Part shown: piece by piece, positions 8,701 through 50,882 of the stretch
Position numbering within the stretch: the stretch's first letter is position 1
Layout of the letters: each line of letters starts with the position of its first letter
Assembly: GCF_044647545.1 (NCBI RefSeq)
Contig: NZ_CP172818.1
DNA length: 64,000 nt
Strand: one strand, 5' to 3'
DNA from: Escherichia coli
GTDB lineage: Bacteria; Pseudomonadota; Gammaproteobacteria; Enterobacterales; Enterobacteriaceae
The notes under the pieces: generated by a model
What the model was told of the DNA's origin: nothing
Seen by the model: the letters and a program-made list of their open reading frames with translations, nothing else
Database searches by the model: none
Translations under genes and position numbers: made by a program

Positions 8701-9455
8701 GCGATGATGTAACTGGAGTTATACCAGTCGGCAGATTCCGGCACGTCGGTTTGTTCGCCCCAGGTCATCGGCGAGGCGGGCGGCAGGTCGCAATACCAGT
8801 CGTAGAAGCTTAAACAGGTGCCACCTAACAGCGACAGATAACGTGTTCCGGCGGCGTAAGAAACCATCGACATCGCCGGGATCGGCGAGAAACCGGCAAC
8901 GCGATCCGGGCCGTAAGTTTTGATGGTCCAGACGTTAGCAGCGGCAATCAGCTGGTTTAGCTCCTGCCAGTTGGAGCGGATAAAGCCGCCGCGTCCACGT
9001 ACTTGTTTGTAGCTCAGGCACTTTTGCGGATCGTTCATAATCGATGCCCACGCCAGTACCGGATCGCTGTGTTGCTTGAGGGCTTCGCGCCACAGTTCAA
9101 TCAGTCGTTTACGAATGAGCGGGTATTTCAGACGGTTAGCGCTGTAGAGATACCAGGAGTAACTTGCGCCACGCGGGCAGCCGCGAGGTTCATGATTGGG
9201 CAGGTCAGGGCGAGTGCGCGGGTAGTCGGTCTGTTGGATTTCCCAGGTCACCAGACCATTTTTAACGTAGATTTTCCAGCTACAGGAGCCTGTACAGTTA
9301 ACACCGTGGGTGGAACGCACGATTTTGTCGAACTGCCAACGCTGGCGATAGCTGTCCTCCCAGTCGCGGTTGCTATGCATCACCTGTCCGTGACCATCGG
9401 CAAAGGTTTCGCCCTTTTGTTTGAAGTAGCGAAAGCGATCCAAAAGTTTACTCAT
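5715..9455 (-). CDS. narZ: nitrate reductase Z alpha subunit (molybdopterin)
   Basis: Track ORF is 1287 aa; trimmed to the ATG at 9455-9453 (cat on plus strand), which has an AGGAG RBS upstream and gives 1246 aa. Confidence 0.9.
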   Translation of the reverse strand: MSKLLDRFRYFKQKGETFADGHGQVMHSNRDWEDSYRQRWQFDKIVRSTHGVNCTGSCSWKIYVKNGLVTWEIQQTDYPRTRPDLPNHEPRGCPRGASYSWYLYSANRLKYPLIRKRLIELWREALKQHSDPVLAWASIMNDPQKCLSYKQVRGRGGFIRSNWQELNQLIAAANVWTIKTYGPDRVAGFSPIPAMSMVSYAAGTRYLSLLGGTCLSFYDWYCDLPPASPMTWGEQTDVPESADWYNSSYIIAWGSNVPQTRTPDAHFFTEVRYKGTKTIAITPDYSEVAKLCDQWLAPKQGTDSALAMAMGHVILKEFHLDNPSDYFINYCRRYSDMPMLVMLEPRDDGSYVPGRMVRASDLVDGLGESNNPQWKTVAVNTAGELVVPNGSIGFRWGEKGKWNLESIAAGTETELSLTLLGQHDAVAGVAFPYFGGIENPHFRSVKHNPVLVRQLPVKNLTLADGNTCPVVSVYDLVLANYGLDRGLEDENSAKDYAEIKPYTPAWGEQITGVPRQYIETIAREFADTAHKTHGRSMIILGAGVNHWYHMDMNYRGMINMLIFCGCVGQSGGGWAHYVGQEKLRPQTGWLPLAFALDWNRPPRQMNSTSFFYNHSSQWRYEKVSAQELLSPLADASKYSGHLIDFNVRAERMGWLPSAPQLGRNPLGIKAEADKAGLSPTEFTAQALKSGDLRMACEQPDSGSNHPRNLFVWRSNLLGSSGKGHEYMQKYLLGTESGIQGEELGASDGIKPEEVEWQTAAIEGKLDLLVTLDFRMSSTCLFSDIVLPTATWYEKDDMNTSDMHPFIHPLSAAVDPAWESRSDWEIYKGIAKAFSQLCVGHLGKETDVVLQPLLHDSPAELSQPCEVLDWRKGECDLIPGKTAPNIVAVERDYPATYERFTSLGPLMDKLGNGGKGISWNTQDEIDFLGKLNYTKREGPAQGRPLIDTAIDASEVILALAPETNGHVAVKAWQALGEITGREHTHLALHKEDEKIRFRDIQAQPRKIISSPTWSGLESDHVSYNAGYTNVHELIPWRTLSGRQQLYQDHPWMRAFGESLVAYRPPIDTRSVSEMRQIPPNGFPEKALNFLTPHQKWGIHSTYSENLLMLTLSRGGPIVWISETDARELTIVDNDWVEVFNANGALTARAVVSQRVPPGMTMMYHAQERIMNIPGSEVTGMRGGIHNSVTRVCPKPTHMIGGYAQLAWGFNYYGTVGSNRDEFIMIRKMKNVNWLDDEGRDQVQEAKK

Positions 9456-9484
9456 GACATAACTCCTGCTCCAGGAATGAATTG

Positions 9485-9540
9485 GGATCTGATGCCTTGT
9501 CGGACGCGACACGGTTGTAGCCTGATAAGACGTGTCAGGC
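9485..9540. repeat. REP-like palindromic element in the narU-narZ intergenic region
   Basis: gtagcctgataagacgtgtcaggcatc resembles the REP consensus. Confidence 0.45.
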
Positions 9541-9549
9541 ATCGATCTC

Positions 9550-10938
9550 TTATTTTTGGCTGAACTTCCGCCGACCATAAACCAGCCAGGTCAGTAGCAC
9601 GCAAACGATGTAGAAGATTAAAAACACTTTCATCGCGCCCACCGGAGAGCCGGTCATATTGAGCGACATGCCAAACGCCTGCGGAATAAAAAAGCCGCCC
9701 ACTGCGCCAATGGCTGAGATAAAGCCCAGAGCGGCTGCCGTTTCGGTGACGGCTTCTCTTTGAGCTTGCTCATCACTACCGCCTTTCATCTTCACCCGAT
9801 AAATGGTTATCTGGCGAAAGATGACGGCGATCATCTGGAAAGTAGAACCACTTCCCAGACCCGCGGTCAGAAACAGCCCCATAAATACGGCGTAAAATGC
9901 GATGAAATTACCGGAGCCTGTGCCCGGTAAGGTAAGGAACAGCAGGGCGCTGAAAATCGCCATAAAAATGAAGTTGATCAACGTCACCCGCACGCCGCCG
10001 AATTTATCGGAAATAGCACCACCAACCGATCGCGCGATGGCACCGATAAATGGGCCAAAGAACGCCAGGCGCAGAATATTCACATCCGGGAACTGGGTTT
10101 TTGCCAGCATGGCAAAACCCGCAGAAAAACCGATAAACGAACCGAAGGTGGCAAGATAAAGCAGGCTCAGTAGCCAGAGATGCAGGCGTTGTAAGACAGG
10201 GAGCTGGTCGGCAATTGAGGCGCGTGAACTGGCGATATCATTCATCCCTGACCAGGCGGCGATCGTGGCAATCGCCAGTAATGGCACCCAAATCCATGCG
10301 GCATTCGCCAGCGACATCACCGAACCGTCGGCCTGCGGTACGCCATTGACGCCGAGAAAGGCAAATACGGGTACAAAAATGACCAGCGGTGCAACCAGCT
10401 GCATCACACTTACACCTAAGTTTCCTAATCCGCCATTAATCCCAAGTGCGCTCCCTTGTTTGGCTTTTGGGAAGAAGAAACTGATATTGCCCATGCTCGA
10501 AGCAAAGTTCGCACCTGCAAAACCGCATAGCAAAGCGATAACGATAAATATCCCAAAAGGAGTATTCGGATTCTGCACGGCAATTCCGAGCCAGACGCAA
10601 GGAATAATCAGGATTGCAGTACTAAAAACCGTCCATCGGCGTCCACCGAATATAGGCACCATAAAGGAGTAGGGGACACGCAATAATGCGCCAGAAACGG
10701 AGGGTAATGCGGTTAATAAAAAGAGTTGATCGGTAGTGAAATTAAAACCGATTTTATTGAGATTAACAGTAACTGCGCTAAATAGCATCCAGACACAGAA
10801 GGCAAGAAGTAGACAACTGACTGATATCCAGAGGTTTCTTCGTGCAATATGCTTTCCTTTATTTTCCCAGAAGGCCGGATTTTCTGGTTTCCAGTCGCGT
10901 AAAAGATAACGACTATTTTTCTCATTTTGCAGTGCCAT
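9550..10938 (-). CDS. narU: nitrate/nitrite transporter (MFS)
   Basis: Track ORF is 476 aa; trimmed to the ATG at 10938-10936 to give 462 aa; polytopic membrane protein. Confidence 0.88.
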   Translation of the reverse strand: MALQNEKNSRYLLRDWKPENPAFWENKGKHIARRNLWISVSCLLLAFCVWMLFSAVTVNLNKIGFNFTTDQLFLLTALPSVSGALLRVPYSFMVPIFGGRRWTVFSTAILIIPCVWLGIAVQNPNTPFGIFIVIALLCGFAGANFASSMGNISFFFPKAKQGSALGINGGLGNLGVSVMQLVAPLVIFVPVFAFLGVNGVPQADGSVMSLANAAWIWVPLLAIATIAAWSGMNDIASSRASIADQLPVLQRLHLWLLSLLYLATFGSFIGFSAGFAMLAKTQFPDVNILRLAFFGPFIGAIARSVGGAISDKFGGVRVTLINFIFMAIFSALLFLTLPGTGSGNFIAFYAVFMGLFLTAGLGSGSTFQMIAVIFRQITIYRVKMKGGSDEQAQREAVTETAAALGFISAIGAVGGFFIPQAFGMSLNMTGSPVGAMKVFLIFYIVCVLLTWLVYGRRKFSQK

Positions 10939-37010: not shown

Positions 37011-37165
37011 ATTATCCCCCTAAAACGGTATTCCTGTCGGAACCGCACCTGTTTTGTTCTGAAGCGTATTCAGAACAATATTTTCCGTTGCTAATGCCAG
37101 TGAACAGACTTTGGAAATTGTCCCGAAACGGGTGTGTTTCGGGACACCGTTACCGTTAAACGTTA

Positions 37166-38566
37166 TCAGGTATGTTTAAAGCTGTTCTGCTGGGCAATAC
37201 CCTGCAGTTTCGGGTGATCGCTGAGATATTTCAGGGAGGCTTTGTAGTCTTCCAGCAACAGTTCAGCAAAGTCCATTTCGAAGCCGCGACGACACATAAT
37301 GCGCATCACCACGATGTCAGTGGCTTCACCGCCGAGAGTGAAGGCCGGAACCTGCCAGCCGCGCAGACGCAGACGTTCAGAGAGGTCGTAGAGGGTGTAT
37401 CCCGGATCTTCACCATCTTTCAGTTTGAAGCAAACCGCTGGGATGCCTTCGTCCGGGCGACCGGTACAGATGAACTCATACGGCCCCAGTTTGGCGATTT
37501 CATCCGCCAGATAGGCAGCAACCTGGTAGGAAGCGTTCTGTACTTTGGTATAGCCTTCACGACCGAGGCGCAGGAATTCATAGTACTGTGCAATCACCTG
37601 ACCCGCCGGGCGGGAGAAGTTGATGGCGAAAGTCCCAATCTGACCACCGAGATAGTCAACGTTGAACACCAGTTCCTGCGGCAGCGCTTCTTCATCACGC
37701 CAGATAACCCAGCCGCAGCCTAGCGGAGCCAGACCGAATTTATGGCCTGAAGCACTGATCGATTTCACACGCGGCAGGCGGAAGTCCCAGACGATATCCG
37801 GGGCGACGAACGGTGCCAGGAAGCCACCGCTGGCGGCGTCGATGTGCATGTCGATGTCGATACCGGTGTCGGCCTGGAATTTATCCAGCGCATCGTGCAG
37901 CGGCTGCGGGAACTCATAGTTACCGGTATAGGTCACGCCGAAAGTCGGCACCACGCCGATGGTATTTTCGTCGCAGGCTTCAATCATGCGTTTCGGGTCC
38001 ATAAACAACTGACCGGGGCGCATAGGGATCTCACGCAACTCCACATCCCAGTAGCGGGCGAATTTATGCCAGCAGATTTGTACCGGACCGCACACCAGGT
38101 TTGGTTTATCCGTTGGCTTACCTGCAGCTTCCATACGCTTGCGCCAACGCCATTTCATCGCCATCCCGCCAAGCATACAGGCCTCGGAAGAACCAATGGT
38201 GTTGGTGCCAACGGCCTGACCATTTTTCGGTGCAGGCGCATGCCACAGATCGGCAACCATGTTTACGCAACGCAGGTCGATGGCTGCAGATTGCGGATAT
38301 TCTTCTTTGTCGATCCAGTTTTTGTTAATGGATAAATCCATCAACTTGTGGACATTTTCGTCGTCCCAGGTCTGGCAGAAAGTGGCCAGGTTCTGACGAG
38401 CGTTGCCATCAAGATATAATTCGTCATTGATAATCTGAAATGCGACATCGTCGCGCATTTCGTGCAGCGGAAAACGTTTTGATTCTGCGATAGTGGAAAT
38501 AGACTTTGCACCAAAACGTGAATCGAGTAGTTCCGACCTTAAATCCGTTACTTGCTTCTTATCCAT
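37166..38566 (-). CDS. gadB: glutamate decarboxylase B (PLP-dependent)
   Basis: Trimmed to [21 protein letters not shown] (ATG at 38566-38564), 466 aa. Confidence 0.95.
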
Positions 38567-38645
38567 TTTAAACTCCTTAAAATGATTGGATCGCATTAAA
38601 AAAGTAGGATTTATCGATAAAGTAAGCAAGTGCAAAGGACTCGTG

Positions 38646-38665
38646 TTTAAATAACAAAATCCTAA
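38646..38665 (-). promoter_or_regulatory. GAD box (GadE/GadX-RcsB binding site) upstream of gadB
   Basis: Plus-strand tttaaataacaaaatcctaa is the reverse complement of TTAGGATTTTGTTATTTAAA, an exact 20/20 match to the GAD box as I recall it, about 80-100 nt upstream of the gadB ATG. Confidence 0.8.
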
Positions 38666-38995
38666 TGTTATTTATCGTGAGATATTGCGTGAATAATATT
38701 TTTTCATTGAAAAACAATATAGTAGGGAGCTATTGGGTGGTGGCAAGGTGTTTTATGCTGTTATTTTTATGTGCATTCTGTGCCTCCTGAATTATCACGT
38801 AAAAATCAGACCTTAAAATATCATTATTAGTACGCGGTTATTTACTTTGAACGCATTTATAAAATTATTACATAAAAATAGCGAATATTGCTAAAATCCC
38901 CGCCAACGATGTGTTGACGGGGCTGTGATTATTTTGGCAATAATACCCCGGCATAAGTATTTACCGGATGAGAAAGATATTGTTTAACGCGTTAA

Positions 38996-39379
<384 letters not shown>

Positions 39380-41203
39380 AAACCGAGTAATAATGGGATA
39401 TAAGGTAATGGTGAAAAAAGGATAAACGAAAAATAAGAAAGTCTATGTATGAATACGCGCTGGAACCCATGCGGTGGCCTGCCTGCAATTTGCTAAATGT
39501 TGGCTTCAGTTAACTTTATCGTTGAGTAGATAATGTAATTGTCTTGGATAGAAAAATGTGATGTAAATGTCTATATTAAAAAGATTTTAGGATGAAAATA
39601 AACTTGATGATTAAAAAAGGCTAAAAGTAAACTAGAATGAAAATTACCAATGTAACATATAAAAATGGTGAATAAACTGATAAGGTGGGAGGAAGAAAAA
39701 TAATGATAGGAATGTGCTATTCATAAATAATATCGGGTCGGTGAGAATTGATAAATTATATGTATCCGATAGATAAAAAATGATAAACTAAGAGGGTAAT
39801 GGAATTAGTATAATGAGGTAAGTAAAATAATTGATATGATCAGAGTGATGGCTGCTATCATGAAAAGTAGTTACTGAATTATGGTCTGTAAGGTATGTAG
39901 CTCTGGGGGCATAAATTAAATAAAAGAAACTATGTTCTGAGAAAAGAAATTATTATTAATAAAATGCATTGTGTAATGATAAAAATAGTTTTTGGCCTGC
40001 ATAGCGTTGTTGATAGTGAATAATTTAGGAAAAAATAGGCCAGCAGAGTGGGTTCCCTGGTCGCGCTGTCTTTGTTTGATGAACTCTTTCAGAGTGCTGT
40101 CATCATCATTTTTCATGAGTAAACTGCGACTCTTTTCAAGGTAAAAACAGTAATCAATTTGAGATTAATTGAAAACTGGAGGGCTGGCTCCTGCATTCTG
40201 CTCCTGCCGGGCTTTTTGATTTGTTAATTTTGATTTATTGTAGGGTGGCTGGCTGCTGTGATAAACTCTTTAAGCTTGCATCTTTTAACGACCTGCGGAT
40301 TGGGGGGCAAGGTTATTTTTGCTTAGATCGTGTTGTAGATAACTGATGTTTTCTACTGTATAGAAAGGAATAATCGTTTTACGTATAGAATTGGCTTAAG
40401 TCTGTGTTGGGGTTATGCGGGTAATTTGACTGATGGGAAAAATTTGGGTAATTTCAGAATGGAATATTTCTGTAAACAGTGAGAATAAGAGGTTATCAGG
40501 TAGATTTTTATGTGGCTGCTTTTTTATCTGCAACAGGGCAGCAAGGAAACGCCATCAGCTTAAGGTCTTTGGAATGCTGATATGGCTGATAAGAGCTGTA
40601 GGTAAAATCATTGGGAAATAGCTGTATAATTACGGGTGAAGTCACAATAAAATTGGGGTGTGAGTGCGGATAGGTCTGACTTTAAGCCTGCCGAGCGGCA
40701 AGGACATCGATAACGCACATTATGGAGGTAAAGAGAATAATTGTATGATACTGTCCGTCAGTTGTCGAGAATGCGTAACCTGATAAGAATAGGAAGCGTA
40801 GTAGTTACTTACTCAGATAATGCTTTGATTGATCAGGTGAGGATTATTTGGCAGGTCGGAGCTTTAAGCAGGTAGCTTGGCTGGTGTGTGGCGATAGTGT
40901 TGGTGTGCGTGGGGTTGAAGTTGGGTGCCTTGGGGTGTGTTGGTGGGGGTGTCTTGGAAGTAAGAGAGAAAAAGTGGGTGAGTGAAGTAGTAAAAGAGAA
41001 GAGAAGAAGGGAAAAAGTAAAGGTTAAGTAATTGAAAAAATGAATAAAATGAGAAAATGGAATTGAGATAAAATAATATGAAAGGTTATGAAATGATAAA
41101 TATGTGATGAATGTATTATTTATTAATAAATATATCGCCTAAAAACAACGCGGGGCAGGGAATGACTGCATTTAATTTTTAGTAGGGTGCGTGGTGACTC
41201 TCG
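39380..41203. other. ORF-free block with strong strand asymmetry (C-depleted, A/G/T-rich on the plus strand); nature unknown
   Basis: No ORF of 70 aa or more on either strand in about 1.8 kb; positions 40981-41100 contain no C at all. Confidence 0.9.
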
Positions 41204-41974
41204 TTAGCAAATAATCAATCCTAAAGCACTCATCGTGTTGTCCGTGTTCATACCGGTGTGCCTTTGACAACGGTACTCCTTAGAAACTCTCTTTGGACTG
41301 TTGCCGAAATGTTTGCGGAACGCATAAATAAAATAAGATGTACTCGCATAACCACATTGTTCGGCAATTTTATTGACTGAACCTTCTACGCGTATCAAAT
41401 TTTTTGCGTGCTGCATTCTGGCATCTAAAAGAATCTGTGAGAATGTCGTTTGCTCTTGCTTTAGTTTTTTCTTCAACAGGCTTTCACTGATGTACAGGCA
41501 GTCACAAATATCTTTCAGCTTCCATGGGTGCGCCAGCTTCATGTTGACAATATTTCTCACTTTCCCGGAAACGGATAGCACACCGTTAGTTAATAGTGTA
41601 ATGAAACCTTTGCATGCGGCAAAAATAGACAGGCAAGAAAAAAGCAAAAGTTCTGAAAAATTATGATGATTGCGTTCTTCCGAGTTGAGATAAGCAATCA
41701 TTTCATTAAGCAATCCAGTCGGTACATTTGAAGCACGTAAAAACTTCGCAGGAACAGGCACCGTCACTGTCTGAATGTTAGTGCATTGTAGATATTTTTT
41801 AATGGTATTTTCATTAAATCCGATTTCTTTGAAATGCCGCTCATAAGGTTCAAAATGCGTACGAACAGCGTTATCTACCATCAGGATCTCGCCGTCAGAG
41901 AAGGCGTAATCTTTATCTAAAATGTTAGCGTTGAAGGCATGATGAATAAATATAACAGAACAAACGAGCGACAT
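41204..41974 (-). CDS. ydeO: AraC-family acid-resistance regulator
   Basis: 256-aa ORF with a C-terminal AraC-type HTH; immediately downstream of safA. Confidence 0.9.
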   Translation of the reverse strand: MSLVCSVIFIHHAFNANILDKDYAFSDGEILMVDNAVRTHFEPYERHFKEIGFNENTIKKYLQCTNIQTVTVPVPAKFLRASNVPTGLLNEMIAYLNSEERNHHNFSELLLFSCLSIFAACKGFITLLTNGVLSVSGKVRNIVNMKLAHPWKLKDICDCLYISESLLKKKLKQEQTTFSQILLDARMQHAKNLIRVEGSVNKIAEQCGYASTSYFIYAFRKHFGNSPKRVSKEYRCQRHTGMNTDNTMSALGLIIC

Positions 41975-42048
41975 TTTATCTCCTTAAAACAATAAAGTTT
42001 TTATCGATACTTTTTTAACATTTCATATTTATAATTTGCTGTTTATTT

Positions 42049-42246
42049 TCAGTCTTGCAAACTATTGATAATGAAATGTGTAAGATCTCTTGCAATGCGA
42101 CCCATTTCTGAAATACCCAGCTGATCAATTGCCGAAAAAATGGCTATCAACGTAAGTGTCAGTAATAAGACAACCACAATTACAGACATGATTTCTTTAT
42201 AGTTGTCTCTTTGCGTGATTTTGTTTTTCACTGTGGTCGCATGCAT
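42049..42246 (-). CDS. safA: small membrane protein, PhoQ-activating connector SafA
   Basis: 65-aa ORF with a single transmembrane helix. Confidence 0.88.
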   Translation of the reverse strand: MHATTVKNKITQRDNYKEIMSVIVVVLLLTLTLIAIFSAIDQLGISEMGRIARDLTHFIINSLQD

Positions 42247-42357
42247 TTCAAATATGTTTATTTAGCGGATAACGTTAAAAATCGTTAATCAGTATGCTTA
42301 ATATAACAGGCTGGAAAAAAGAGGAAATAGGACTGGTGCTTCAGTACTGAGCGGAGT

Positions 42358-42378
42358 TTCTTACAGCTGTAGGCAGAA
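42358..42378. promoter_or_regulatory. EvgA-box-like inverted repeat upstream of safA-ydeO
   Basis: ttcttacagctgtaggcagaa; near-identical to the motif at 45022-45041 upstream of ydeP. Confidence 0.6.
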
Positions 42379-42493
42379 GTTTATATCTTATAGTATGTAG
42401 TCTAATTTAATCCATGTGAGCAAATTGCGCGATAATAGTCAATGAGGAATTCTTCTGCTGTGCGGATGACAGCAGAAGAAATGAGAAGAGGCA

Positions 42494-44773
42494 TTAATTT
42501 GATGGTTCTAATTCAACCGGAATACTTTTATAGCCAGGAATGCCACTTAATGGATCGTGGTTATCAAGTGTTAGCATGTGATTCGATTCTGGAAAATAGG
42601 TCACCAGTGAGCGGTCAGCCATAGGGTAAATGACCACTTTTAATCTATCCATGCGTCGTGAGCTACGTTTACCGTCTGGCGTGAGTGCAATAAGATTAAC
42701 TCTTTCGCCGTTTTTTACACGGCAAATTTTAGCTTGTTTAGCACTCATAAAGACCACATCTCGTTGACCGAATACACCTCGATAGCGATCATCCATACCA
42801 TAAATCGTCGTGTTGTACTGATCGTGGCTGCGTACTGTCGCCATGACCAGTTTACTGTTAAACGCTGAAGAGGGATCTTCTAACAGCCCTTTGCTGGTAA
42901 TGAAATTAGCCTTACCTGACGGCGTCATCCAGCGCCTTTCAGCAGCTGCGTTTATCAGGTGAAAACCACCAGGATGACGGATGCGCTGGTTATAGTCGGC
43001 AAACTCTGGCAGCACAGCTTCAATGTCATTGCGAATGCGATCATAATCTTCCACCAGATACTCCCAGGCTACCACGCTCTGGGGTAGTGCTGCCTGCGCG
43101 ATTCCCGCGACCACTGCACACTCTGATTTCAGCATTACACCGGCGGGTTTTAACACACCACGCGAGGCATGAATCATCGACATTGAATCTTCAACGGTTA
43201 CCGCCTGCGCACCGCTTTTTTGCATGTCAATCTCGCTACGTCCCAGAACCGGCAGAATATAGCTATGCCGTGCGGTCAGCAGATGAGAGCGGTTAAGCTT
43301 AGTGGCTACGTGTACAGCCAAATCTAATTGCGTTAACGGTACAGCGCTCGCTTCCCGATCTGGCATTGCCAGCGCAAAGTTGCCCCCCATGCAGATCAAT
43401 GCTCGAGCTTGCCCCGTACATATTGCTTGCATGCTGGCAATTGCAGCATGTCCAGGTGCATGAGGTGGGGTGAAACCATAGCGCTCACCCAGGCGAGCCA
43501 GAAACTCTGCAGACGGTTTCTCGGTGATACCGACGGTTCGGTCGCCCTGTACATTAGAGTGACCTCGTAGTGGGCAGATGCCCGCACCAGGCTTGCCAAT
43601 GTTACCTTTCATCAACAGCAGATTGACCAGTTGCTGTACATTCTGGGTACCATGTTCGTGCTGAGTGATCCCCATTCCGTAACAGATAATGGTGCGGTCG
43701 GCAGCGGCATATGCATCAGCCAGTTCGGCGATTTGAGTCTGACTTAGTCCAGAAATACGCTCGATATCTTTCCACTCGGAATTGAGAACGTCACGGCGTA
43801 GCTCGTCAAAGCCGACGGTATGCGTTTGAATAAATTCGTCATCCAGCAATGAGGGCCGACCTGCGGCGCTTGCAGCATCATCGCGCTCAATTAACAGGCG
43901 CATCATCCCCTTGAGCAACGCCATATCACCACCAATGCGCACGTTGTAGTAGGCACTGGCCAACTGAGTCTCAGAGTTCGTCAGCATTTCAAACGGGTTT
44001 TGCGGTGCGGTAAATCGCTCCAGGCCACGTTCCTGTAGAGGATTGATGGCGATCATTTTCGCTCCCCGTTTCACTAAAGCGCGCAACGAACTCAGCATGC
44101 GAGGGTGGTTTGTACCAGGGTTATGCCCAATGCAAATGACTAAATCGCATTTCTCAAAGTCTTCCAGCAACACGGTCCCTTTACCTACACCGATACTCGC
44201 TGCCAAACCCACACTGGTCGGTTCATGGCACATGTTGGAGCAGTCGGGGAAGTTATTGCTCCCGTATTCACGGGCAAAAAGCTGATAAAGAAAGGCAGCT
44301 TCATTGGAAGTGCGGCCCGAAGTATAGAATTCAACCTGATTGGGATCACTATAGCTTTGAAGGCGTTCGCCAATTTCGTCGAAAGCTTGTTGCCAGCTTA
44401 ATGGCTTGTAACAGTCGCTGACGGCATCATATTTCAAAGGCTGGGTGAGACGCCCCGCAGCCTCAAGCTCGTGGTCTCCCCAGGTAAGTAATGATTGAAC
44501 CGTATTCTCAGCAAAGAAAGAGGCGTTTACCTGCTTATCCGTGACTTCCCAGGCGATTGCTTTTGCGCCGTTTTCACAAATGTCGAATGACGCACTGTGC
44601 TTAGGATCTGGCCATGCACAACCCGGACAGTCAAAGCCCTCTGGCTTATTCATGTCAAACATGGCAATAACATCCTGGCGTATATCCATCTGCTTACGTA
44701 CTGCATTCGCTACGGATTTAACAGCACCCCAACCACCGGCAGCCCCCTGGTAGGATTCAATTTTTTTCTTCAT
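42494..44773 (-). CDS. ydeP: molybdopterin oxidoreductase-family acid-resistance protein
   Basis: 759-aa ORF, formate-dehydrogenase-like. Confidence 0.92.
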
Positions 44774-45021
44774 CTACTTATCCTGTGTGGAAATGAATTA
44801 TTAGGATTTGAAATAGCGATGATGCACAGTATATACAAAGGGATTATCGTCAATATGGATATATAAGAGTAGGGGACTACTCTCTTTCTATTTTTAATCT
44901 ATTATCGTTAAATAATAGAATGGTATAAATACGATAAGTTAAGCATCATCTCTCATAGTGTTTAAATTAACATGTTTTTCAATATAAAAAATAAGACTCT
45001 GGCGTTAATTGTGCGCGGATT

Positions 45022-48294: not shown

Positions 48295-48546
48295 TCGACT
48301 GTAGGCACTGTCGGATAAGTTATAAAAACCTTGCGTAGAATAGCGATATCCTGCGACCTGGATATTGGTTCCACAACAAGTTTATTGCAGCACTTGTTGA
48401 AGAGAGTATTTGCAAAGACATTTTATGTCGCTAAATAACATGACGATTTCATTATGCATGTTATTTATAAACCGTGACTAAACAGAATATTATTGCGAAC
48501 AAGGGAAGTGTCAGGAAAGGTCAAGAGCGACCAATGGCTTATATGG

Positions 48547-48975
48547 CTATAAATCATTAGCTATAGTTAATGTTTGCCTGGTGTAACTAACACGGAATTG
48601 CTCTAAACAGATAAGTGCAGGGTTTATTAAAGCTGACCGACAGACTTTCTTAACCTGGTAATATCTCTCAGGTGACTCTCCAAACATCCGCGAATATTCC
48701 CGACAGAAATGGGATAAGCTTTCGTAACCGACAGCATAGGCTGCAGTGGTGACATCGTAATGTTCATTCAGTATCAGTCGCCTGGCTTCATTGAGGCGTA
48801 GCCATTTCTGATACCGGAGTGGACTCATTCCCGCAAGCTGTCTGAAGTGTTGATGGAAAGGGGGGCGTTCATTTGCACGCGGTTTGCCAGCCTGACTCTT
48901 CAACGCAGGGAAGATGCGGCAAACGGCAAACCTGCATACCAGCCAGCCTATATCCGGTATGCACAGGCCAATCAT
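48547..48975 (-). pseudogene. yneL: AraC-family regulator fragment (HTH region only)
   Basis: Short ORF carrying only an AraC-type HTH segment (LAGMSPLRYQKWLRLNEARRLI...). Confidence 0.65.
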
Positions 48976-49159
48976 GAAAGAGGAGAGGCTTTATGTTCTG
49001 GAACCCTGAAGTAATAACGACGACCGGAAAATCGCTTCGCATCACTCAAATCCAATTTAACATAATATACATTATGCGCACCAACATAAACCAAGGAAGA
49101 ATCCAGTCGTTGGCGGTCATGATTGTCCTGCTCATTAACAACGACCAAAACCCCATATC

Positions 49160-50482
49160 TTACTTAATACCGTATTCTCGGCTTAACCGGTCGTGCAACC
49201 TCAACACATTGGTTTCAACTGCCGTCACCACGTTCTCCGGAAAATCTGTCGGTAATGAAGTCTTCACGTTATCCAGTGCTGCTGGAATCATTCTGGCAAA
49301 GTCACTCAGGATTTCATGCATCTGCACTTCCGGGAATCTCAGCACCTTTGCTGTCGCCAAAAAATGTCGCGGATAAATTTTATCGATTGCCGTTTTTTTG
49401 CCTTTGGATGCGTTAAGCCCCATTGCCAGTTTGAGATCGCTGATGTGTATTCCCGTACCGCCAAGGACCGGAAATGCTGAAATGATGTCGTAAAATGGCG
49501 TGAGTCGATAACTGCCGCCAGCCTGAATAAATACGGAGAAGTTTTTTGCATGACCGTCCGTTGCGCCAATCAACCACTGGAAGACCTGGAATTTCATAAA
49601 ATCATAGCGATCTTTCAGCGCCTCGCTGGACCCCATCAAAAAAGCCATGATCCGCGCGATGCCTGGGCCTCCATCTGATTCATATTTCACCGATGAAGGT
49701 AAACCGAATGTCTGACACATATCCTCCTGTGGCAAGCGAAGTAAAACCGTTCGCTCAGCATTCCAACGCCTGTCAAAACGTTCGACCGCTAACGCGCGCA
49801 CATTTCCCGCTTTAATGATTTCTGCGTCCGGAACATTCAACCCAAGTTCTTTCGCCAGCAGCAGACAGTAATACTCATTATCAACGCTTTGGCTGAGATC
49901 GAGCGTCGCATTGGGCTGCCTGATTTCGCCAATCGGTAATTTAATGATGTGCGTCGTCGGCGTTATTCCTTTCGGAATGCACCAGTCATTGCCTATTCTG
50001 AGCAGTGCTGTCTTCTCCTGTGCGCCAGCAACCGAGATGCGAAAGTCATTTTCTTCTCTAATCATGCCTAGCGGGATATCTGCTTTATAAGCCGTTAATA
50101 CTTCTTCAAGTCTGGCTTCAGTAAGCTTTTCCCATGCCATTATCGGATGCGTTACGGTTTCGTCTTCGGGTATTAACGTCACGGCACCAACGCTGTCTCG
50201 CCCTATTTCTGACAATAAATCAAACGGTTGTCTGGATTTGGCATGATAACGTTTAACGATCCGGTCACGTACAATCGGGCTATCGGGTAACAGGTTATCG
50301 AAGAAGTTAAATACGGCATCAGAGGTGATATTCCCCCTCTGCAATGGCAGCGAAAGTGACAACGGTCTGGCATAACGGCTTGCTAACCACTCCGGTGCAT
50401 ACTTAAAGGTGTGCGCGCCGTTGGCTAACTTCGTTAACTCGCCTACCCGCTGGTTGTTCATCCAAGTGACAAGTTTAGGCAT
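49160..50482 (-). CDS. hipA: HipA serine/threonine kinase toxin
   Basis: Trimmed to MPKLVTWMNNQRVGEL (ATG at 50482-50480), 440 aa; overlaps the hipB stop by 1 nt. Confidence 0.95.
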   Translation of the reverse strand: MPKLVTWMNNQRVGELTKLANGAHTFKYAPEWLASRYARPLSLSLPLQRGNITSDAVFNFFDNLLPDSPIVRDRIVKRYHAKSRQPFDLLSEIGRDSVGAVTLIPEDETVTHPIMAWEKLTEARLEEVLTAYKADIPLGMIREENDFRISVAGAQEKTALLRIGNDWCIPKGITPTTHIIKLPIGEIRQPNATLDLSQSVDNEYYCLLLAKELGLNVPDAEIIKAGNVRALAVERFDRRWNAERTVLLRLPQEDMCQTFGLPSSVKYESDGGPGIARIMAFLMGSSEALKDRYDFMKFQVFQWLIGATDGHAKNFSVFIQAGGSYRLTPFYDIISAFPVLGGTGIHISDLKLAMGLNASKGKKTAIDKIYPRHFLATAKVLRFPEVQMHEILSDFARMIPAALDNVKTSLPTDFPENVVTAVETNVLRLHDRLSREYGIK

Positions 50483-50748
50483 TACCACTCCAGATTTTGC
50501 TGTTCTGTTGATTCTGGCGAGGCATTTTTCGCGTCGCATAGCGTCATTGAGAGTTCAAGCGACTGTAAAATCTTAAAAAATGTCGTGAGCGTGGTATTGT
50601 CAGGGTTGTTTTCGAAATTGGAAATCGTCGCCTGCTTAATACCAATTTTTTTCGCCAGCTCGCTCTGCGTCCAGCCATTTTGCTGGCGAACCAGTTTCAT
50701 TGCATTCGCCAATTGCGTTGGGCTATAGATCTTCTGAAAGCTCATCAT
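50482..50748 (-). CDS. hipB: HipB antitoxin (Cro/C1-type HTH)
   Basis: Trimmed to MMSFQKIYSPTQLANAMKLVRQQNGWTQSELAKKIG, 88 aa. Confidence 0.95.
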   Translation of the reverse strand: MMSFQKIYSPTQLANAMKLVRQQNGWTQSELAKKIGIKQATISNFENNPDNTTLTTFFKILQSLELSMTLCDAKNASPESTEQQNLEW

Positions 50749-50769
50749 GTCATACGTCCACAGCAAGTT

Positions 50770-50882
50770 TATCCGCTTAAGGGGATATTATAAGTTTTAT
50801 CCTTTAGTGAGGATAAGTCAATCTGGAAACACATCTTATCCGCTCTACGGGATAAACGCTGCGATATCCGCGATCGCGGATA
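50770..50882. promoter_or_regulatory. four HipB operators (TATCC-N8-GGATA) in the hipBA promoter
   Basis: Exact TATCC-N8-GGATA matches at 50770-50787, 50798-50815, 50837-50854 and 50865-50882. Confidence 0.9.

Follow-up and report, generated by a model that had tools for sequence, protein, structure and literature searches.

Unpolished long-read patches, which remain in a consensus at a misjoin or at a position of zero coverage, carry errors that are nearly all deletions, with essentially no substitutions; they are sharply bounded between perfect flanks, contain homopolymer junk, destroy conserved genes and are absent from other genomes. In two-colour Illumina chemistry, a loss of signal is read as G, which yields long G homopolymers. 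Templates for in vitro transcription include the G-less cassette, whose opposite strand is C-less and which has a stretch of more than 100 nt without one base. H-DNA mirror repeats have a purine-rich strand.

We analysed a window of 64,000 nucleotides from Escherichia coli (assembly GCF_044647545.1, contig NZ_CP172818.1) in which the DNA 3′ of ydeO is free of cytosine, and compared it with these systems. All the properties of an unpolished long-read patch listed above are shared by this locus, but its base bias (36 of 36 C's lost over 178 nt) and two G runs of 48 and 114 nt exceed the usual description of such errors. The long G homopolymers are also common to the two-colour Illumina artefact; that artefact, however, swaps bases for G at a fixed read length, whereas C and T are deleted here over 1.8 kb. 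With H-DNA mirror repeats the record shares the purine richness of one strand, including 26 nt of uninterrupted purine, but this tract is made by base dropout in the record, native runs being no longer than 13 nt. The G-less cassette also has more than 100 nt without one base, but differs in that the stretch near ydeO follows the native ydeN-ydeO spacer in collinear order, with no plasmid match. In the literature, no specific description of this exact signature, C dropout together with poly-G, was found.

Base composition of the cytosine-free stretch

Direct base counts gave A78 G58 T41 C3 for positions 40921-41100 and A67 G29 T24 C0 for positions 40981-41100, in agreement with the initial annotation, which had reported three C's in the 180 nt and none in the last 120 nt. 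The length of 120 nt given there for the C-free part is true as far as it goes and understates the extent: the nearest C's lie at 40928, 40929 and 40953, none follows until 41136, and the full run is 182 nt (40954-41135). With C at its frequency in the window (0.245), the probability that a run of this length begins at a given position is about 6e-23, and about 9e-19 such runs are expected in the window; with C as scarce as in the native spacer, the probability would still be only about 1e-11. In the clean part of the window, C-free runs do not exceed 48 nt. Two further compositional claims were reproduced, namely that 40981-41040 is nearly all purine (51 of 60 positions) and that 40880-40960 is GT-rich (69 of 81 positions are G or T), as was the placement of the segment 3′ of the minus-strand gene ydeO.

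A scan of base composition, which the initial annotation had proposed, found 120-nt windows with five or fewer of any one base exclusively inside 39120-41150, and at this level of depletion the window holds no further bad patch. The C-free stretch is the right end of a larger anomalous block of about 2.2 kb (38990-41220). Within it, C-depletion spans approximately 39386 to 41135, where the median is 12 C's per 120 nt, against 30 elsewhere.

Layout of the block and comparison with finished genomes

As reference we used the sister genome E. coli FDAARGOS_497 (NZ_CP033850.1). The block consists of 2,231 nt in place of 10,466 nt in the reference, which carries pqqL, yddB, yddA, ydeM, ydeN and the ydeN-ydeO spacer at this position. 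The features of the block and of its flanks are collected in Table 1.

Table 1. Features of the anomalous block and its flanks, in window coordinates.
Feature	Position	Strand	Basis or remark
Clean left flank, from gadB through the final 60 nt of pqqL	37096-38989		100% identity to E. coli FDAARGOS_497
GC-rich, A-poor piece	38990-39176		Untraceable; starts at a 12-nt palindrome (TTAACG/CGTTAA) centred on the breakpoint
Poly-G zone: G48, 26-nt G/T/C spacer, G114	39175-39362	+	Base counts
ydeM remnant (anaerobic sulfatase maturase), frame destroyed	39386-40196	-	Maps to reference locus (L002) 9120-10217; no long ORF
ydeN (sulfatase) 3′-half remnant, bases dropped	40209-40874	-	Alignment to native ydeN
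GT-rich untraceable piece	40875-40957		In place of 866 nt (native ydeN 5′ half and upstream); z about 0-1 versus shuffles
ydeN-ydeO intergenic spacer, C's gone	40958-41135		Alignment; equals reference locus (L002) 11984-12268
Tail of error zone, reaching ydeO 3′ end	41136-41220		16 residual differences
ydeO, C-terminus altered	41204-41974	-	ORF of 256 aa versus 253 aa
Clean right flank: ydeO, safA, ydeP	41221-45000		Identical to FDAARGOS_497

On the left side, no difference was found over 5,990 nt, and the identity extends back to at least 33000. This perfect match, common to many complete E. coli genomes, FDAARGOS_497 among them, stops at 38989, having covered the 3′-terminal 60 nt of pqqL. 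On the right side, the 31 differences from FDAARGOS_497 are all confined to 41069-41220, across which the error rate declines and then ends; the following 3,780 nt, up to position 45000, contain none. The rest of the window differs from FDAARGOS_497 at about 14 positions in the approximately 57 kb that could be aligned.

A search of 5,426 complete E. coli genomes did not recover the anomalous segment; matches there begin only from position 41048 onward, with 82-84% identity and gaps. The native ydeM/ydeN region is near-universal in the same set, being matched in 5,390 of the 5,426 genomes. An exact 45-mer taken from the segment was absent among 100,044 representative genomes, and a search of plasmids and phages gave no match to the segment. 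The initial annotation had judged the skew to be unlike native chromosomal DNA, a view that proved right, and had proposed that the same sequence downstream of ydeO in finished genomes would make it a natural feature; none of the 5,426 carries it there. Identical flanks beside a massively divergent block, and a sequence reproduced neither in the E. coli genomes nor in the wider representative set, are both marks of an artefact.

Traceable parts of the block

The segment 39386-40874 can be aligned collinearly with ydeM and the 3′ half of ydeN of the reference; the alignment has 1,455 matches, 543 deletions, 34 insertions and not a single substitution. Over 39659-40874, the loss amounts to 57% of the C's, 22% of the T's and 13% each of the A's and G's; of 215 runs of deleted bases, 188 comprise only one or two nucleotides, and the alignment reads as the native text with single letters missing. 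G, the complement of C, is spared, and the loss is thus specific to both base and strand. Such a spectrum, made of indels without substitutions and biased by base and by strand, is technical in character. We know of no mutational process that removes 57-100% of the C's of one strand as single-base deletions without substitutions. No minus-strand ORF longer than 66 aa is left in the place of ydeM (385 aa) and ydeN (560 aa).

Alignment places the segment 40958-41220 in collinear order on the native ydeN-ydeO spacer. The segment continues without a break into ydeO, and its core (40965-41024) matches the native spacer with z of about 6 against block shuffles. In 40958-41135, 34 of the 36 C's are deleted, the other two are substituted (C>A and C>G) and none is kept; the other losses are 46 of 89 T's, 24 of 114 A's and 5 of 45 G's. 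The native spacer is already rich in A, G and T on the same strand, with 13% C, and the near-homopurine text of the record arises because pyrimidines have been lost from it. The longest pure purine run is consequently 26 nt in the window (40992-41017) versus 13 nt in the native spacer. Two ideas of the initial annotation fall on this alignment: a synthetic origin, since the text is neither synthetic nor foreign but the native spacer minus its C's and many of its T's, and a triplex-forming polypurine tract, since the 26-nt run comes from dropped pyrimidines. The residual differences in the tail of the error zone (41136-41220) comprise nine deleted, one inserted and six substituted bases.

The traceable parts of the block are shown by these alignments to be native ydeM, ydeN and ydeN-ydeO spacer, within the pqqL-to-ydeO interval, with individual bases missing. 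The order of loss is the same throughout: C is lost most (57% to 100%), then T, and A and G rarely.

The errors also reach into a coding sequence on the right. The end of YdeO is changed from SALAI (253 aa) to SALGLIIC (256 aa) by the errors at 41204-41220, a false variant.

Untraceable pieces, poly-G runs and left breakpoint

Two pieces of the block have no recognizable source. The first (38990-39385), 396 nt of GC-rich and poly-G sequence, stands in place of 7,225 native nucleotides, and the second (40875-40957) is GT-rich and stands in place of 866. Searches of E. coli genomes, plasmids and phages gave no match to either, and in alignments with the local reference on either strand both score no better than shuffles. 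A foreign, vector or phage source was rejected for both on these searches, in which the plasmid collection included few purely synthetic vectors. The GC-rich part of the first piece (38990-39176) was also tried as degraded pqqL, yddB or yddA with a deletion-tolerant alignment, which remained at shuffle level and has little power against a 7-kb target.

The homopolymers lie at 39175-39222 (G48) and 39249-39362 (G114). Tracts of this kind are highly unstable and are not maintained in replicating E. coli. They merit a separate flag, as they would give rise to spurious poly-Gly and poly-Pro ORFs, at 39011-39403 on the plus strand and at 39153-39488 on the minus strand.

At the left edge of the block, the breakpoint 38989/38990 is the exact centre of a perfect palindrome of 12 nt, TTAACGCGTTAA (38984-38995). 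A chimeric read folded back at this palindrome was considered and rejected, as 38990-39176 compared with the reverse complement of the flank gave z = 0.6. The palindrome may be a chance occurrence.

Probable origin of the block

The C-free stretch is almost certainly a technical artefact of the sequence record and not a property of the bacterium's DNA. Judged from the sequence, it is to be regarded as no real feature of the chromosome; it belongs to a corrupted patch of the record. The loss, limited to deletions and biased by base and strand, together with the identity of the flanks, points to base-calling failure as the cause, and not to mutation, synthetic DNA or a triplex tract.

The block 38990-41220 resembles a failing raw single-molecule read, and would reflect poor base-calling at a joint of the assembly that polishing did not correct. 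A single aberrant long read, or low-quality read ends, may have bridged or joined contigs at this place, and the patch would then have survived in the consensus, polishing having presumably failed there while the surrounding sequence was corrected. Repair by polishing would not have been possible, as good reads would find nothing to align to in text of this kind. The finished quality of the remaining window fits this picture of an unpolished joint. Two observations go against it. Error severity does not change monotonically, since milder stretches intervene between the worst ones (38990-39385 and 40875-40957), and for that reason a simple decaying read end is an incomplete description. Besides, 38990-39176 and 40875-40957 can be traced to no sequence at all.

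Alternative explanations

Among the alternatives, the one that keeps some weight accepts that the garbling is artefactual and places it over a deletion of some 7.2 kb (pqqL-yddB-yddA) that is real in this strain, the poly-G and GC-rich junk then marking a poorly covered junction. The 396 nt at 38990-39385 indeed represent 7,225 native nucleotides of which none is traceable, the traceable sequence restarts at position 9120 of the reference locus, within ydeM, towards its 3′ end and close to the yddA-ydeM spacer, and the window contains other genuine structural differences from FDAARGOS_497. However, the 866-nt gap at 40875-40957 illustrates that hundreds of bases can be swallowed here without a real deletion, and inside pqqL, where the left breakpoint falls, there is no repeat or IS element that would explain a deletion. 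We regard this mixed explanation as possible, though distinctly less likely than the artefact by itself. A genuine loss of pqqL-yddB-yddA under the patch is the sole non-trivial biology that the evidence leaves, and such a loss is rather doubtful.

That the DNA is real, a decayed ydeM-ydeN region followed downstream of ydeO by a natural polypurine:polypyrimidine tract prone to H-DNA or triplex formation, is extremely improbable. The record does show the 26-nt pure purine run at 40992-41017, with 85% purine over 60 nt, and the native spacer is itself purine-rich on the same strand. Against this, deletions specific to C, without substitutions and beside flanks identical to those of the sister genome, fit no known mutational process, G48 and G114 would be highly unstable in E. 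coli, and nothing similar occurs in the 5,426 genomes. An uninterrupted mirror-symmetric homopurine tract, which H-DNA requires in the DNA of the organism, is absent, as purine runs in the native spacer reach at most 13 nt. The physical presence of the poly-G runs and of the C-free DNA in the cell is practically excluded.

An engineered insert replacing pqqL-ydeN, whether a C-less or G-less cassette, a vector remnant or a knockout scar, could account for the extreme composition and for some 7.2 kb of missing genes, and the string CTCGAGCTC (XhoI/SacI) at 39029-39037 might be taken as a trace of cloning. This string, however, is a single short occurrence in noise. The C-free stretch is collinear with the native spacer (z of about 6 versus shuffles) and continuous into ydeO, and 39386-40874 is native ydeM/ydeN minus bases. 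No phage matched, and neither did any plasmid, in a plasmid collection (PLSDB) that holds few purely synthetic vectors and is not a full vector library, so that the vector test is not exhaustive. We consider such an insert to be scarcely credible.

Removal of the C's by cytosine conversion, bisulfite-like or by a deaminase acting C-to-T, would suit a depletion that is specific to C and limited to one strand, but it can be dismissed: the C's are deleted instead, with 0 substitutions in 39386-40874 and with 34 deletions versus two substitutions (C>A and C>G) in 40958-41135, no C>T occurs in either segment, and T is depleted too, not enriched.

Consequences for the record

Read as an artefact, the patch makes the record misrepresent about 10.5 kb of chromosome: pqqL, yddB, yddA, ydeM and ydeN seem to be lost or destroyed, and the C-terminus of YdeO is false. 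Automated annotation, pan-genome analyses and surveys of gene presence would all be misled by it, as would searches for unusual DNA by composition. A deletion-only spectrum, specific to base and strand and situated between perfect flanks, could be reused as a flag for such patches in public assemblies. The significance of the finding is limited to data hygiene.

Other differences from FDAARGOS_497 in the window

Isolated deletions of 1-4 nt relative to FDAARGOS_497 are present at 18878, 48669, 48860, 50830 and 51483, in otherwise identical surroundings. At least one of them, at 48860, adjoins a homopolymer of G. Either true differences or leftover indel errors of the consensus could account for them.

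Two larger differences were also observed. Around 12296-12621, in the region of a leucine-rich-repeat protein and the yddL porin, two segments of FDAARGOS_497 are absent, of about 0.64 kb and 1.5 kb. The same arrangement is found in other complete genomes as a one-piece match with 96.8% identity, and the difference is therefore ordinary variation in a repeat-containing region. At 48372-50828, about 4.6 kb of FDAARGOS_497 is absent (part of a fimbrial usher, a chaperone and an IS2-interrupted fimbrial gene), and the window carries instead a ydeT-hipA-hipB arrangement with ORFs at 49160-50539 and 50482-50766 on the minus strand. This segment has a near full-length match in other complete genomes, in two pieces and with about 97-98% identity, and the difference looks like ordinary strain variation.
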